From IMG/VR virus record IMGVR_UViG_3300043414_000372, positions 1-64,000 of that record: 64,000 nt of DNA; one strand, 5' to 3'. Within the stretch, counting starts at the first letter, position 1. Every line of letters starts with the position of its first letter. The notes below the pieces were generated by a model. That model saw only the letters and a list, made by a program, of their open reading frames with translations. It had not been told where the DNA came from and made no database searches. The translations under genes were made by a program, and so were the position numbers. This DNA comes from a virus (lineage: Duplodnaviria > Caudoviricetes). Of this stretch, positions 2,894 to 8,162 are shown piece after piece.

Positions 2894-3135
2894 ATTAAAT
2901 CCTTTAATCTTGCTATTAAATATTCATCTTTATCATACCAACGATGTTCGTACAACCAATCTGCAAACCCTGATTGATATCCTGCGGTAATGCAATATAC
3001 ATTCTCTAACCACATTATACGCTTTGATATATAGCATCGTCTAGGCAATAGGGTAAACTTTAATTTTCTACCCATAACACATCGTTTAAAATGATAATCA
3101 CCGGCTGATTGCGTAGTCCAATCACTTGAGGGCAT
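2890..3135 (-). CDS. Hypothetical protein (81 aa)
   Basis: ORF tiled in the operon, overlapping its neighbours. Confidence 0.6.
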   Translation of the reverse strand: MPSSDWTTQSAGDYHFKRCVMGRKLKFTLLPRRCYISKRIMWLENVYCITAGYQSGFADWLYEHRWYDKDEYLIARLKDLI

Positions 3136-3230
3136 TATTCTCTATCCACTCTAGCATCTTCATTTGACCTATAGCACATGTATAGTACACCTACTATATA
3201 CCCAAGTAAGAATCCCCAAACTAAATTCAT
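3135..3230 (-). CDS. 31-aa single-pass membrane microprotein (not in ORF track)
   Basis: Hand translation MNLVWGFLLGYIVGVLYMCYRSNEDARVDRE*; TGATG overlap with queE stop and TAATG overlap with the next start, exactly filling the gap. Confidence 0.7.
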   Translation of the reverse strand: MNLVWGFLLGYIVGVLYMCYRSNEDARVDRE

Positions 3231-4078
3231 CAGGTACCCCACTCGTTTTTGAACAACGGCACTTGTAATCTATCACTATAGCGCCAGCCTAAACGCATTG
3301 CTTCATTAGCAACATTTCTAGCATTCATATTATACAAACTTTCAACACCGCCGCAAGGCATCAAATATACATGTCCTCTAAAGCCACGCTTACTGTATTC
3401 ATTAACTGCTTCTTGTGCTTCTTCTACGTCTTGTTTGTTTGCTACAACAAATTTAAGATATACATGACCCACTTGAGTATATTCATATACAACTTCAGGT
3501 CTTATTGCTTCTTCCCACTTTTCTCCGCTGATACTTAGTTTAGGACTGACGCTAAATGTTATTGCACCCATGCTACGACTGATACACCATTTATGTAAGT
3601 AGATTTTCAAATCTTGATGTAATTCTTGTGTACCGTTAGTTTCAAAAGTTAACTCTTGCAAACCACGCATGTTTTCATGTGAAAGCAAATCTACATAACT
3701 ACGTTGCCAACCCAGCAATGGTTCGCCGCCTGTGATAACAAGATGCTCACTCAACCAACGATTGTGTGGTAGCATTTCCATAATGCTATCAACGATACTA
3801 TCAGTTTCAAGTACAGGACTTAAATCTTTGAATCTTGGATCCCAACTTGCATAACTATCACAACCTGTGCTAACTAATGGTAGTTGTTTATAATCAGTAT
3901 AGTAATGAACACGGGCAGCTATATCTTCTACTTCACGACTTAGTTCACCCTTAGGCATACCAAAGCCTGCGCATTTGAAGTTACATCCGAATGTACGTAG
4001 AAAGACTGAGGGGACACCCATGTATCTACCCTCACCCTGAATGCTATAGAATAGTTCTGCGATTTTTAATTTTGCCAT
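3230..4078 (-). CDS. queE: 7-carboxy-7-deazaguanine synthase (radical SAM)
   Basis: IAELFYSIQGEG, RTFGCNFKC...C cluster motif, VITGGEP, ETNGT, VSPKL; start re-set to MAKLKI (4078). Confidence 0.92.
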   Translation of the reverse strand: MAKLKIAELFYSIQGEGRYMGVPSVFLRTFGCNFKCAGFGMPKGELSREVEDIAARVHYYTDYKQLPLVSTGCDSYASWDPRFKDLSPVLETDSIVDSIMEMLPHNRWLSEHLVITGGEPLLGWQRSYVDLLSHENMRGLQELTFETNGTQELHQDLKIYLHKWCISRSMGAITFSVSPKLSISGEKWEEAIRPEVVYEYTQVGHVYLKFVVANKQDVEEAQEAVNEYSKRGFRGHVYLMPCGGVESLYNMNARNVANEAMRLGWRYSDRLQVPLFKNEWGT

Positions 4079-4079
4079 G

Positions 4080-4559
4080 TTAATCCTGAAATTCGTTATC
4101 TTCCCTGTGCCCAACACGCATTGCCATGTTAGCATCAGTTTCTCTTACTTCTACTTTACTACACCAAACACGTTCTGCTTCACTAGCACCAAAGCTAGGC
4201 AATAGAATAGTGTTAATGTATTCGTATAAGAAATCACTAATACCCTCACAGCCAGTCTTTTCAACTTCTGTAATCTTTGCTAGCTTAAGTCTACCCAACT
4301 CAAGTAAATGTTCACGCATTGGGTCATCTTGTGCGACTAGTAATGTATGATCAAACCAATCTTCTAATACAGATTTTAGAGGCTTTAGTCCCCCAAAGTC
4401 TGTTACCCAATTACGGGCATCTAATGTATCAGCTTCAAATTCAAAATGAAATGAAAGTGCGTAGCCATGTATTAGATTGCAATGACTATCGGCACGCCAT
4501 TGACGATAAGCTACTGGACCTATTTGTTTGTAAGTCTTTGTTGAAATATATTTTGCCAT
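4080..4559 (-). CDS. queD: 6-carboxy-5,6,7,8-tetrahydropterin synthase
   Basis: CNLIHGY (CxxxHG), DFGGLK, FDHTLL, VRET; adjacent to queE. Confidence 0.9.
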   Translation of the reverse strand: MAKYISTKTYKQIGPVAYRQWRADSHCNLIHGYALSFHFEFEADTLDARNWVTDFGGLKPLKSVLEDWFDHTLLVAQDDPMREHLLELGRLKLAKITEVEKTGCEGISDFLYEYINTILLPSFGASEAERVWCSKVEVRETDANMAMRVGHREDNEFQD

Positions 4560-4565
4560 GATGTT

Positions 4566-4630
4566 CTCCTATGTTATTATAGCATAGGACGCAGAATTTA
4601 TCAACCGGGATGATGTCCTGTAGACCGGCT
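4566..4630 (-). promoter_or_regulatory. Candidate structured leader (hairpin + pseudoknot vs SD-sequestering stem) of queD
   Basis: AGCCGG/CCGGUU stem with 16-nt loop; loop AGGAC is complementary to downstream GUCCU, which alternatively forms UCCUAUG/CAUAGGA over the SD. Confidence 0.45.
4576..4604 (-). promoter_or_regulatory. Sigma70-type promoter of queD
   Basis: Minus strand TTGATA-N17-TATAAT with extended -10 TG; AGGAG SD follows. Confidence 0.7.
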
Positions 4631-4639
4631 CTGGGTAAA

Positions 4640-5194
4640 TTAAAGATAATTGTACCCAGGTAAATTTTTCTTTATACGACTTCGTAAAGTATCATTTGTT
4701 ATTTTTAGTGCTATGGCTGCATCCTTAACACAATCAAAAGTTCCAATAGGTGTTGATACTGATTTAGCCCTAGGATTTAATCCACCGTGCAACTGTGGTC
4801 TATTTTTGAACAGCAGTATATTTTCGGGCGTGTGCTTTTTACCATAAAATGAATTCAATGTTCCTTTTTTGCCAAACTGAGGATTTTTTTCTCCCTTCAT
4901 ACCAGGACTACCTACTGGCTTTCCGTCTCTTCCATTCTCGGGCCTTAGATTTGCCCACTCTTTAGATTCTACAATGTTGTTCTTCTCAGAGAATTTCAAA
5001 GCAAAATGTTCACATTCATCTTGATCTTCAAACTCCCAAACCTCTAATGTAATTATGTCTTTCCCGTGCATTTTCAAATGTCGGCGCCAATGTGTCCCTG
5101 AACCAATATAAACATTTGGATTTTTTTTGATAGTCATTCCAAAATATTTCAAGCCAGTTATTCTGTGTTGTTTTACATATAAATAAATTTTCAT
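4640..5194 (-). mobile_element. Free-standing GIY-YIG homing endonuclease with NUMOD3-like DNA-binding repeats
   Basis: IYLY...GLKYFG catalytic motif; GEKNPQFGKK and NSFYGKKHT NUMOD3-like motifs; inserted between intact genes. Confidence 0.85.
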
Positions 5195-5218
5195 AGATTA
5201 CCTCTATGATTATTTATC
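5191..5218 (-). promoter_or_regulatory. Late promoter plus translational-repression hairpin of the endonuclease gene
   Basis: GATAAATA (5211-5218) followed by UCAUAGA-ggtaa-UCUAUGA stem covering the GAGG SD and AUG. Confidence 0.65.
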
Positions 5219-5224
5219 CCTAAT

Positions 5225-5252
5225 TAGCGGGGTTGATGCCAAAAGACCGCTA
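5225..5252 (-). repeat. Second copy of the queD-leader hairpin
   Basis: UAGCGG/CCGCUA 6-bp stem, 16-nt loop UCUUUUGGCAUCAACC resembling UCUACAGGACAUCAUC at 4609-4624. Confidence 0.55.
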
Positions 5253-5255
5253 TAT

Positions 5256-6113
5256 CTATTTACCTAAATTCATTTCTTTTCGGATATTTGTGGCACTAAT
5301 TTGGGTGATATTTTCATCAAATGTTTCCTCACCTGATGTATATCCCACTCCGCGTCCCCAACCAATATGAACAATATTGGGTACAACTTGTATCTCATAT
5401 TGTCCTTGAAAGATTGGATCTAAATCACGTTTGATAAACCCTTTAACTTGGTCAATAGCGAAAGGATTACTTCCTTGCCATCCTTGTACATCACGTACTT
5501 GAATAACAACTTGCCCAGTTTTTGCTATCAATCGTTCAAACAATGCACGATGTCCAGCATGCCATGGTTGCCAACGACCCAGCATTTGTACTGTTTCTTT
5601 CTTCCAATCAAATACTGGTCTACGGCGATTGTCTAGTATATGTTGCCCAATAAACTCTGCCCACTTGTCAGCGTTTTGTTCTGTTATACGGAAATCATAT
5701 ACTTCTGGTGGAATAAATGCTTTGTTAGTATCATCAAACCGACCTTGGTCAATAGTATCAACCCAGATAGTCCAATCAGCTTTGAAGTTATTACGCATCT
5801 CAACTAATGGTGCAACAAAGTCGCATATAACATAATCACTAGTACAATTTAATGCAAACTCAGCCATACGCAATGATTGACGAATACGACCTTCACGGCT
5901 GAAGTCCCAATCATTATATTTTTTACGAATCTCATCAGCATTAAACCAATCTACACTACACTTGTATGTAGTTGGCATATGTTCCATGTTAATAGCACGA
6001 TCCATTGGAAAGTTTTTAATATTTGAATTTTCTTCAATATACTTTTTCAATGCTGTGGCTAAAAATGTTTTGCCTGCTCCCGGCAAACCCATAATAAGTA
6101 TTTTCTTTGTCAT
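5256..6113 (-). CDS. Adenylylsulfate-kinase-like P-loop kinase fused to HxGH nucleotidyltransferase domain
   Basis: GLPGAGKT, NADEIR, DFVAP in the N-terminal half; GRWQPWHAGH and ISATNIR in the C-terminal half. Confidence 0.75.
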   Translation of the reverse strand: MTKKILIMGLPGAGKTFLATALKKYIEENSNIKNFPMDRAINMEHMPTTYKCSVDWFNADEIRKKYNDWDFSREGRIRQSLRMAEFALNCTSDYVICDFVAPLVEMRNNFKADWTIWVDTIDQGRFDDTNKAFIPPEVYDFRITEQNADKWAEFIGQHILDNRRRPVFDWKKETVQMLGRWQPWHAGHRALFERLIAKTGQVVIQVRDVQGWQGSNPFAIDQVKGFIKRDLDPIFQGQYEIQVVPNIVHIGWGRGVGYTSGEETFDENITQISATNIRKEMNLGK

Positions 6114-6577
6114 TGTTTCACCTTATTTTGTTCTGCTTCTGATACACGTTTACGTAAACTGCTGCTACTGAAACTGTGGTCACGACTATTGAATACTAAT
6201 TCTATCTTACGCTTCTCACAAATTGCTCGTCCAGTAAAGTCTTTCTCCATGTACTCAACCCCTAGTATACGTACATCTACTGGCAATGTCAACAGTATGT
6301 CTTCCAAATCTTTTTCAGTATTATAAACAACGATTTCATCTACAAAACGTACAGCACTTAAACTGATTTGTCGTTCTACAATACTTTGAATGGGTGCATT
6401 CTTATCTGGTCTATCCCATTGTGCATTGTTTTGTAATCCGGCAATAAGGTAATCGCAATGATTCTTAGCTTCACTAAGCATTGCGATATGTCCAGCGTGT
6501 AATATATCAAATTGCGAGAATACAATACCTATCTTAAGGCCTTGTAGTTTTAGTTCTTTAATTCTATTGAATATCAT
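6110..6577 (-). CDS. Cytidylyltransferase (TagD/RfaE-C-like)
   Basis: FDILHAGH, ERQ..L.AVRFVDEIV, SSSSLRKR. Confidence 0.85.
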   Translation of the reverse strand: MIFNRIKELKLQGLKIGIVFSQFDILHAGHIAMLSEAKNHCDYLIAGLQNNAQWDRPDKNAPIQSIVERQISLSAVRFVDEIVVYNTEKDLEDILLTLPVDVRILGVEYMEKDFTGRAICEKRKIELVFNSRDHSFSSSSLRKRVSEAEQNKVKQ

Positions 6578-7251
6578 TTATTGCCCCGAGCCAATTGATA
6601 AAATTCTGCTCTTGCTGCTGGATCACTTTTGAATCCTCCACCTAGCTTACTTGTAACAGTACTAGAGCCAGTATCTTCTACGCCGCGACTTTTTACACAA
6701 TAGTGTTGTGCATCAATCATAACCGCAACATCTTCTGTTTCCAGAATATATTGTAATGCGTGAAAGATTTGTTCAGTCAATCGTTCTTGGATTTGTGGAC
6801 GCTTGCTAAAGTATTCTACAATACGATTGATTTTACTCAATCCGAGCACCTTTTGATTGGGAACATATGCGACAGTAGCAAGACCGTCAATGACTACAAA
6901 GTGATGTTCACAATTGCTTTGTACATTGATATTGCGTTCACATACCATTTCGTTGTACTTCATTTTGTTATCAACTGCGGTACATTTAGGGAATGCTTCA
7001 TAATCTAGTCCCCAAAAGATTTCGTTGACATACATCTTTGCCACACGCTTTGGTGTATCCATAAGACTATCATCACTTAGGTCAAGCCCCATTGTTTCCA
7101 TGATAGATTTGAAATGACCTTCAATGATGTGAATTTTGTCTGTACGAATTAGTTTATTTGGAATAGTAGGAGTTTCAACTCCCATCTTAACCAAATGTTC
7201 GTGTACTTGTTGACCCAACTCTGGATCTGTTTTTGTTTTATTGTAACTCAT
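6574..7251 (-). CDS. folE: GTP cyclohydrolase I
   Basis: TPKRVAKM, SNCEHH, GLSKINRIV, QIQERLT, HYCVKSRG; start re-set to MSYNK (7251) after GGAAGG SD. Confidence 0.95.
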   Translation of the reverse strand: MSYNKTKTDPELGQQVHEHLVKMGVETPTIPNKLIRTDKIHIIEGHFKSIMETMGLDLSDDSLMDTPKRVAKMYVNEIFWGLDYEAFPKCTAVDNKMKYNEMVCERNINVQSNCEHHFVVIDGLATVAYVPNQKVLGLSKINRIVEYFSKRPQIQERLTEQIFHALQYILETEDVAVMIDAQHYCVKSRGVEDTGSSTVTSKLGGGFKSDPAARAEFYQLARGNK

Positions 7252-7323
7252 AGATAACCTTCCTTTGTGATGGTTTGTGTTTTGAAATGTAAGCAACCGT
7301 TGTGCTGCTTACATATTTATTTA

Positions 7324-7530
7324 TCACTTTGATTTTGCTTTTGATTTTTTTGCTGGCTTAACGCTAGCAATTGCTTCATTAACTTCCCGCAATAGGGCTT
7401 CATCGTCCCAAACTAATTCAGTTTTACCATTCGGAAATGTTGTAACTGTTAAGTGATTACCTTTAACGATCTTTACTACATCTTGTCCTGTAGCATCGAT
7501 AGTTTCTGTTTTCTTTTTGCGGGTTGCCAT
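7324..7530 (-). CDS. Hypothetical protein, basic termini
   Basis: ORF track; tiled in the operon. Confidence 0.65.
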   Translation of the reverse strand: MATRKKKTETIDATGQDVVKIVKGNHLTVTTFPNGKTELVWDDEALLREVNEAIASVKPAKKSKAKSK

Positions 7531-7532
7531 GA

Positions 7533-7721
7533 TTAAGCCTTAGCTTCTTTACGTGCTGCTTTCTCAGCAGTAATTTCGTTACGGCGAGCCTTAACTGCTT
7601 TAGCTAGTTCACCCAATGCTTTACGGGCACGAGTTCCTGCTGCTGCATTACCTTTTTCAAACTTTTCATGTTCGGCTTCGTATGCTGCCAATTGTGTTTT
7701 AATATCATTATGTGCGTTCAT
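7533..7721 (-). CDS. Histone H1-like (Hc1-type) small basic protein
   Basis: EKFEKGNAAAGTRARKALGELAKAVKARR resembles the Hc1-like family motif. Confidence 0.65.
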   Translation of the reverse strand: MNAHNDIKTQLAAYEAEHEKFEKGNAAAGTRARKALGELAKAVKARRNEITAEKAARKEAKA

Positions 7722-7745
7722 TTTATTTTCCTTTTAAAAATTTAT

Positions 7746-8162
7746 TTAGCTGGGGTCGCCTTGACCCACAATATTATCATCTTCATCTAACAACTCTAGA
7801 GGACCTTCAAGTATGTAATCAGTGTCATCACAACTCCAACCCAATTCTTCTAGCCCTTCATAGAATTCTTCATCCCATGCTTCTGTTATTTTCTCTTGTT
7901 CTTCTTCACTCATATCATCAGGGAATTCCCAATCAGCATAACAACCATCATCTAGATGTTCAAGTTCCCATTCATAATCATCGCTACCAATCTGATAACC
8001 ATCCTCATTGACTAAATCAATTTCAGGTTGTGTATCACTTTCGCAATAGAATATCCCCCAACGATAGCCCTCAGTACGGATAATTTCTTTACCGTCTTTG
8101 TACCAATGTTGTTTTTCAATTGCACTCTTTTTATGTTGAGTTTTTAATGTCCATGTTGTCAT
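7746..8162 (-). CDS. Highly acidic hypothetical protein
   Basis: C-terminal two-thirds very D/E-rich with periodic W/Y. Confidence 0.7.
   Translation of the reverse strand: MTTWTLKTQHKKSAIEKQHWYKDGKEIIRTEGYRWGIFYCESDTQPEIDLVNEDGYQIGSDDYEWELEHLDDGCYADWEFPDDMSEEEQEKITEAWDEEFYEGLEELGWSCDDTDYILEGPLELLDEDDNIVGQGDPS

Follow-up and report, generated by a model that had tools for sequence, protein, structure and literature searches.

The queD gene of a lake phage is preceded by a small conserved pseudoknot in its leader RNA, which we interpret as a switch acting in cis on queD. The DNA analysed, hereafter the window, is a stretch of 64,000 nucleotides (positions 1 to 64,000 of the 229,851-bp IMG/VR record IMGVR_UViG_3300043414_000372); window positions are used throughout, and all genes of the region lie on the minus strand. 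Two related hairpins flank a homing endonuclease gene, copy A on its queD side and copy B on the other. We are highly confident that copy A is a structured cis-regulatory RNA. With more moderate confidence we favour the full account, in which copy A acts in cis, as an RNA switch within the intercistronic queD leader, and copy B is a relic of endonuclease insertion. As far as covariance models can tell, the element is an uncatalogued pseudoknot class, found in no Rfam family.

Structure and conservation of the queD leader element

A preliminary description of this DNA had reported two hairpins with 6-bp stems and 16-nt loops, the stems differing in sequence yet both able to pair, and both were confirmed on the minus strand. 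In copy A, AGCCGG (4630-4625) and CCGGUU (4608-4603) enclose the loop UCUACAGGACAUCAUC (4624-4609); in copy B, UAGCGG (5252-5247) and CCGCUA (5230-5225) enclose the loop UCUUUUGGCAUCAACC (5246-5231). The aptamer is larger than the hairpin that had been described, with a second helix that continues through a conserved UCA/UGC extension and a 10-nt A-rich linker. It is an H-type pseudoknot of approximately 47-50 nt, with a stem P1 of 5 bp, a loop L1 starting N-C-U, a helix P2 joining loop to tail, a loop L2 of 2 nt ending in an invariant C next to P1, and the A-rich linker, L3. P2 is made up of 4-5 variable pairs, a U-C apposition, a C-G pair and then an A-U or G-C pair. The parts of copy A are as follows.

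4586..4632 (-): copy A, complete pseudoknot aptamer (covariance model R1, 51.7 bits, E 2.7e-15)
4629-4625 (-): P1 5' strand
4624-4620 (-): L1 (UCUAC)
4619-4615 (-): P2 5' strand, variable part (AGGAC)
4614 (-): bulged A
4613-4611 (-): conserved P2 extension (UCA)
4610-4609 (-): L2 (UC, with invariant C4609)
4608-4604 (-): P1 3' strand
4603-4594 (-): L3 (UGAUAAAUUC)
4593-4591 (-): conserved P2 3' part (UGC)
4590-4586 (-): variable P2 3' strand (GUCCU)

The tail GUCCU fits the loop AGGAC of copy A and not the loop of copy B, and because the tail is complementary to the copy A loop only, the working unit consists of copy A and this tail. The motif CGGTCT-N3-GG-N8-CCG occurs only twice in the whole record, at copies A and B, and covariance model R1, built from relatives, returned these two copies and nothing else significant when run on the same sequence. 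The case for more than a chance structure rests on this rarity, on the covariance-model matches and on covariation in relatives, and not on folding energy.

A search for relatives of QueD gave 80 IMG/VR contigs, in which the element was sought in the approximately 110 nt before queD. It precedes queD in 71 of these 80 loci (70 located by regular expression, and L012, which the regular expression missed), always upstream of and co-oriented with the gene. The variable stems always pair across those loci (AGCGG/CCGCU, ACCGG/CCGGU, AGAGG/CCUCU and ATCGG/CCGAU), the loop is constant at its start (UCU) and end (UCAYC), and the tail has the constant form NUANAAAYUCYGC. One locus, L065, has an element with a single P1 mismatch. 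Among the matches listed from a pattern scan of viral DNA that was blind to gene context, P1 is a perfect 5-bp stem in 96 of 118, with a chance expectation of about 5%, and the downstream open reading frame (ORF) encodes QueD in 90 of 93. Well over a hundred uncultured phages, at the least, carry the element.

Pairing and invariance were counted in alignment A2, which holds 56 diverse aptamers. P1 is paired in all 56, with double changes at three of its five pairs (GC/CG/UA, CG/AU/UA and AU/UA), and with its presence in 71 of 80 loci this bears out the earlier claim that the hairpin is a conserved RNA element rather than a chance stem. The proposed pseudoknot between the loop and the sequence downstream also covaries: all four variable P2 pairs occur as several Watson-Crick types (one pair, for example, as UA in 15, AU in 11, GC in 11 and CG in 5), and P2 is paired in 83-88%. 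The P2 covariation score was 0.527, compared with 0.135 +/- 0.016 for column shuffles (0/500) and at most 0.108 for slid partners. An alignment-free test gave a mean of -5.27 kcal/mol for the pairing of each loop with its own tail, compared with -3.64 +/- 0.135 when tails were shuffled among sequences (0/2000). The P2 helices found are GGCA/UGCC, GGCG/CGCC, GGUG/CACC, GGGC/GCCC, GGAC/GUCC, GAAC/GUUC, GGCU/AGCC, GUGU/ACAC, GACGC/GUGUC, GGCAU/AUGCC, GACAU/AUGUC, ACGAC/GUCGU and AUGC/GCAU.

The conserved end of P2 follows the same pattern. The third base of UCA and the Y of UCYGC, an L2-L3 pair, form A-U in 45 sequences, G-C in 10, and never change on one side only, and the adjacent C-G is invariant; this covariation indicates that P2 extends via the U-C apposition into two conserved pairs. 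Fourteen positions are invariant in the 56 sequences, four of them forming the two top pairs of P1 and the remaining ten placed in loops or at the conserved P2 end. A quickly built QueD tree requires at minimum 12 changes in the state of the L2-L3 pair, 32 in P1 type and 57 in the P2 4-mer, and while these counts are inflated by tree error and recombination, the repeated changes of state rule out a single inherited change.

As far as the collections searched show, the element appears to be confined to uncultured phages, mostly freshwater ones by run metadata. Comparison of the leader by blastn with 50,697 phage records gave only chance matches of 23-42 nt, and megablast of the locus against cultured phages gave no match. 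Prokaryote copies were rejected: a 19-base pattern, sought in one genome for each of 185,579 species, gave 15 matches, a count near chance, in none of which the loop, tail or ribosome-binding site features were found.

Alternative pairing at the queD start and the overlapping promoter

The loop segment AGGAC (4619-4615) is complementary to GUCCU (4590-4586), which overlaps UCCUAUG, the 5' arm of a hairpin that covers the queD Shine-Dalgarno (SD) sequence. The two pairings had been described as mutually exclusive, and the overlap was confirmed in the window and has an equivalent in nearly all leaders compared.

4557..4589 (-): expression platform, its hairpin present in the minimum free energy (MFE) fold
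4589-4583 (-): sequestor 5' arm UCCUAUG, with U4589-U4586 common to the P2 3' strand
4582-4574 (-): sequestor loop
4573-4567 (-): sequestor 3' arm CAUAGGA, covering the SD
4570-4566 (-): SD sequence AGGAG
4559-4557 (-): queD AUG

When the segment from the P2 3' strand to the start codon was folded alone in 103 distinct leaders, the P2 3' strand paired with the SD or the AUG in 101, by at least five unrelated designs. These include GCCUAUG/CAUAGG on the SD (the class of the window), UGCCAUC/GAUGGCA, GUCAUC/GAUGAC and CGCCAUUG/CAAUGGC on the AUG, and CUCC or CUCUU on GGAG. In these predicted folds, a platform design that is kept despite sequence turnover resembles the expression platforms of riboswitches. 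The ribosome site is an alternative partner of the P2 strand and not a part of P2, and as such formation of the knot should expose it. As modelled, this wiring implies an ON switch and not feedback-OFF, and if the element regulates at all, the ON direction is probable. With the knot unformed, the variable P2 3' strand would hide the SD or start codon of queD; with the knot formed, most likely stabilised by an effector, the ribosome site would be free and QueD would be translated.

A sigma70-like promoter lies across the element and its platform.

4576..4604 (-): sigma70-like promoter TTGATA-17-TATAAT, 11/12 matches, with TG before the -10
4604-4599 (-): -35 hexamer TTGATA, on the last P1 base and L3
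4581-4576 (-): -10 hexamer TATAAT, in the sequestor loop

The preliminary description had cautioned that, with this promoter overlapping the 3' half, only read-through RNA would contain the whole element. The promoter is there, and the caution holds for one of several leader classes, class 1, which is that of the window. The hexamer TAnnnT is found in the SD-hairpin loop of 69 of 70 distinct class-1 leaders, and a promoter-like site with at least 9/12 matches in 64 of 71 class-1 leaders, compared with 3 of 40 others. The predicted class-1 promoter is probably real. Its transcripts would begin within the 3' arm and would always be open, and the switch would act on read-through mRNA. The non-class-1 leaders lack a promoter-like site in 37 of 40 cases and retain all the invariant bases of L3 and UCYGC, and queD mRNA there must therefore contain the element.

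The promoter does not explain the element. Leaders without a promoter keep the invariant bases, and the element starts within 60 nt of the stop codon of a co-oriented upstream ORF in 76 of 111 cases, mostly within 15 nt. A terminator scan of the window found no terminator-like site at 4603-4630 or 5225-5252, and an intrinsic terminator was rejected on the grounds that the element loops are 13-19 nt, where 3-8 nt is required, and a U-run is absent. Nor is there a recurrent promoter box: ATTCTGC, considered as a MotA-like repeated box, has one intergenic instance in the genome, and its combination with TAnnnT is not recurrent.

The arrangement has parallels in the T-even phages. The T4 e, soc and I-TevI leaders have a hairpin at the ribosome-binding site together with an internal promoter, and the gene 32 leader pseudoknot is a nucleation site for protein. 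The queD leader has in common with these a hairpin that hides the ribosome-binding site on read-through transcripts, an inner promoter yielding open transcripts, and a leader pseudoknot in translational control. Unlike them, it has a covarying pseudoknot that competes with the hairpin, and its promoter is sigma70-like and not of the late type.

The endonuclease insertion and its relic

The genes of the region are listed below with copy B and the leader of the endonuclease gene.

7296-6574 (-): folE, region ORF
6577-6110 (-): cytidylyltransferase-like gene, region ORF
5256..6113 (-): 285-aa kinase/nucleotidyltransferase-like gene (ORF and family matches); stop codon 5258-5256, 4 nt before relic copy B
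5226..5251 (-): copy B, relic 5' half of the aptamer (covariance model R1, 21.3 bits, model positions 4-30 only)
5251-5247 (-): copy B P1 5' strand AGCGG
5246-5231 (-): copy B loop
5230-5226 (-): copy B P1 3' strand CCGCU; the endonuclease cassette begins at 5225
5192..5225 (-): endonuclease leader, with conserved ATAAATA and hairpin CAUAGA 5208-5203 / UCUAUG 5197-5192
4640..5194 (-): free-standing I-TevI/Seg-like homing endonuclease gene, 184 aa, between relic copy B and copy A
4080..4559 (-): queD, the proposed regulated gene (6-carboxytetrahydropterin synthase, PTPS family; Pfam PF01242, 1.1e-14)
4135-3230 (-): queE, region ORF

A further sigma70-like site, TTGACA-17-TATACT (11/12 matches, 6264-6292, minus strand), lies within the cytidylyltransferase-like gene and points at the kinase-like gene and queD.

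Copy B, to judge by its sequence, is a truncated, non-functional relic of the resident aptamer, tied to the insertion of the endonuclease. L3, the P2 3' strand and the platform are all missing from it. Its loop GGCA needs a UGCC tail; CCGCU instead runs straight into AAUUAGGG..., the endonuclease leader. P1 and the loop of copy B are nearly identical to those of two endonuclease-less loci, L054 and L066. The earlier proposal of a duplication at endonuclease insertion thus stands insofar as the second copy is tied to the insertion, endonuclease-less relatives having one copy and carriers a relic and a full element; it does not stand as to a second switch, copy B being a truncated 5' half.

The comparison of loci is informative here. 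In the close relatives L001-L004 (upstream protein 92-93% and QueD 97-99% identical) the endonuclease is absent and one intact element directly follows the upstream stop codon. Six other loci, representing three distinct sequences (L051; L113, L130 and L132; L038 and L040), have a 65%-identical endonuclease at the same site, and in all six the order is relic P1 and loop, endonuclease gene, full element. The junction CCGCT/AATTAG is common to the window, L051 and the L113 group, with a variant in L038 and L040. As expected of a remnant, the relics of L113 and L038 are missing nucleotides that never vary in the alignment of 56 aptamers and that all full copies parsed have in common. Most element carriers are without the endonuclease. 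In three public runs from lakes or aquatic sources (DNA or probably DNA), contigs join 4613 to 5251/5257, with a GGGC-type loop and the tail of the window, and skip the endonuclease gene, from which it follows that endonuclease-bearing and endonuclease-less alleles occur side by side in nature.

The endonuclease ORF matches phrog_314, 'homing endonuclease', with E 3e-9. In Pfam, the NUMOD3, NUMOD1 and I-TevI DNA-binding domains are found only below threshold and no catalytic domain was recognised; by eye, an N-terminal IYLYV...KYFG pattern can be read. ATAAATA precedes the start codon in each of the four endonuclease leaders that were compared, and in the computed fold the CAUAGA/UCUAUG hairpin masks the AUG of the endonuclease gene together with half of its SD. 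A T4-type late promoter before this gene was rejected, TATAAATA not being enriched (20 in the genome, 42 expected), and the likeness of the endonuclease leader to a decayed queD leader (CATAG..ATG) was too weak for use.

In the order of events that we infer, an I-TevI/Seg-like cassette would have inserted immediately 3' of P1, at the P1/L3 border, leaving the resident 5' half as a relic, with the complete aptamer after the cassette keeping control of queD. The invariant DNA of the switch would suit as a homing target across diverged phages; cleavage would be near CCGCT/TTACAAATTCTGC, and the occupied site would be resistant. This resembles the free-standing GIY-YIG endonucleases (Seg, I-TevI) in the small intergenic ORF, the NUMOD and I-TevI hints, the presence/absence polymorphism and the insertion beside conserved sequence. 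It differs in that the insertion, known here from sequence, is inside a non-coding regulatory RNA, with half an aptamer, the relic, on one side of the gene and a complete aptamer on the other.

Other endonuclease-like genes were found near queD. At L173 (minus strand) a distinct endonuclease-like ORF, of 293 aa and with 34% identity to the one in the window, lies between an intact element with its platform and queD, starting just past the SD, approximately 40 nt after the element; queD follows after a short spacer, so that the switch may now control the endonuclease. Distant endonuclease homologues or fragments are located downstream of queD at L059 and L158, and a fragment lies upstream on the opposite strand at L096. 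The region around queD has the look of a hot spot for mobile endonuclease genes.

Effector, competing explanations and significance

The element was not matched to any known riboswitch class. A cmscan search with all 4227 Rfam 15 families at E<=10 (window 3000-8000 and 4550-4650; L005 2180-2310) gave no credible match and none to preQ1-I, preQ1-II or preQ1-III, in agreement with the preliminary description; the low-scoring matches to SNORD126, Mu-gpT-DE, Glutamine-II (wrong strand) and cow-rumen-1 were rejected as chance. A literature search found no report of a queD-associated phage riboswitch.

The closest likeness is to preQ1-I (RF00522), an aptamer of approximately 34 nt in which the P2 3' strand directly follows the A-rich tail and usually contains the SD. 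The two share the H-type topology P1, L1, P2, L2, P1', L3, P2', a 5-bp P1 topped by G-C, an invariant C at the 3' end of L2 abutting P1, an A-rich L3, control at the ribosome-binding site and a link to 7-deazaguanine genes. In contrast, the queD element is approximately 50 nt, its P2 has 6-7 layers including UCA/UGC, its L3 is 10 nt of the form A-N-A-N-A, and a conserved UGC separates the A-rich linker from the variable strand of P2. Its SD or AUG is 15-40 nt further on and is an alternative partner of the P2 strand, its logic is inverted (ON), it gives no covariance-model match, and it is found only in uncultured phages. By analogy, the element would work like a preQ1-I-type aptamer without being a member of that class. 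PreQ1-II (RF01054) and preQ1-III (RF02680) are likewise pseudoknotted leaders of 7-deazaguanine-related genes, differing in size and architecture and hiding the SD when ligand is bound, and the queD element has no match to their models.

In published structures, preQ1-I aptamers hold the ligand at the C next to P1. The invariant C beside P1 in the queD element suggests a ligand with a guanine-like edge, such as deazapurines or pterins. We see about an even chance that the element is a metabolite-binding riboswitch. The most likely effector would be a small molecule of the pathway with a guanine-like edge: 7-carboxy-7-deazaguanine (CDG), 7-deazaguanine, preQ0, or a pterin, either the substrate dihydroneopterin triphosphate (H2NTP) or the product carboxytetrahydropterin (CPH4). 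QueD catalyses the first committed step of 7-deazaguanine synthesis, after FolE, and it is there that GTP-derived H2NTP is committed. An ON switch would accord with a signal of the substrate type (H2NTP) or with another cue for the pathway to run. No convincing match to QueC (PF06508) was found in five large element carriers (the window record and the records of L002, L041, L043 and L143, which are 61-86% complete), with only weak C-terminal partial matches, one of which, in the record of L143, was barely above the cut-off; this may be consistent with a pathway ending at CDG or 7-deazaguanine. More tentatively, and at somewhat less than even odds, we propose a phage-restricted new riboswitch class, preQ1-I-shaped, that would sense a 7-deazapurine or pterin metabolite and activate the first committed enzyme in the modification of DNA with 7-deazaguanine. 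Its conserved DNA would double as the target to which an endonuclease gene homes, and because that gene carries a spare aptamer with it, the switch would outlive the insertion.

Several observations weigh against a ligand-responsive switch of this kind at queD. The folding energy of the window leader is unremarkable, with z-scores of +0.1 to -0.9. In its MFE fold, CAGAG from the end of the endonuclease cassette pairs with the conserved UUCUG of L3 (4630-4634/4592-4596, minus strand) and replaces P1; this pairing, specific to the window and not conserved, might in the model weaken the switch here. P2 is mismatched in a minority of sequences, for example where the loops GGUCA, GGACA and GAGCA stand opposite UGCC. 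The class-1 promoter, as predicted and well conserved, could be the source of most queD mRNA, which would then lack the aptamer. An ON switch is not the usual arrangement for a biosynthetic gene, and the public runs in which the locus was found are DNA or probably DNA, including those labelled RNA-Seq, which are contigs, give only endonuclease-less variants and cannot reveal where transcripts begin. The element is also dispensable, being missing from about one in ten related queD loci (L017, L024, L033/L035, L042/L046/L070 and L074), where queD abuts the upstream ORF or the leader holds plain promoter-like sequences, and from the cultured phages ACP17 and X1, which have the closest cultured QueD, leave no room for the element and give no covariance-model match.

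The same pseudoknot and alternative pairing could instead answer to a protein, whether a phage translational regulator or an enzyme of the pathway, such as QueD, that acts on the mRNA encoding it. Once bound to the knot, this protein would tip the equilibrium with the helix that hides the ribosome-binding site. All of the structural evidence suits a protein operator equally, and large phages do use protein-operated leaders, such as those of T4 RegA and gp43 and the gene 32 leader pseudoknot. Riboswitches are moreover reported to be rare or nearly absent in phages, which may use classes yet undiscovered (PMC5473149). We nevertheless regard a protein effector as unlikely. The element is short, and its invariant bases, the C next to P1 among them, fall mostly in loops and where P1 meets P2. 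It accompanies a single enzyme gene, at a branch point of metabolism, in phages whose neighbouring genes differ, and no candidate binding protein co-occurs in the loci examined. Less probable again is a knot with no effector, a fixed folding device that would open the ribosome-binding site co-transcriptionally, respond to temperature, magnesium or time, or couple queD to ribosomes terminating on the upstream gene. In most loci P1 starts 0-15 nt past the upstream stop codon, so that terminating ribosomes must melt it, and the predicted stabilities are close (-4 to -12 kcal/mol for platform hairpins, about -5 kcal/mol for P2 duplexes). However, the 14 invariant positions, unpaired loop nucleotides among them, exceed the needs of a simple anti-sequestor helix, and the invariant C by P1 and the A-N-A-N-A linker suggest a pocket.

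A function at the level of DNA, either as a hairpin terminator with a tail promoter or through conservation of a homing-endonuclease target, we consider very improbable. The 11/12 promoter does overlap L3 and the platform loop, TAnnnT recurs in 69 of 70 class-1 loops, and the endonuclease inserts exactly at the P1/L3 border. Against this stand the 13-19 nt loop without a U-tract and without a terminator call, the covariation of loop and tail and the A-U/G-C switch, for which DNA offers no rationale, the invariance of L3 and UCYGC in the 37 of 40 leaders without a promoter, the failure of ATTCTGC with TAnnnT to recur as a promoter box, and the lack of the endonuclease in most carriers.

The element favoured here as a cis-acting RNA switch is abundant in lake phages, shows strong covariation and a clear platform, and stands at the branch point from H2NTP to 7-deazaguanine. 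Modification of DNA with 7-deazaguanine protects phage DNA from restriction. The identity of the effector would add a new deazapurine- or pterin-like aptamer, would show phages metering an anti-restriction pathway, and would give a rare natural pseudoknot switch of the ON type. A homing endonuclease that lands in the invariant DNA of a regulatory RNA, with a working copy of that RNA following it, would extend the pattern of coding-site targeting to a non-coding switch.

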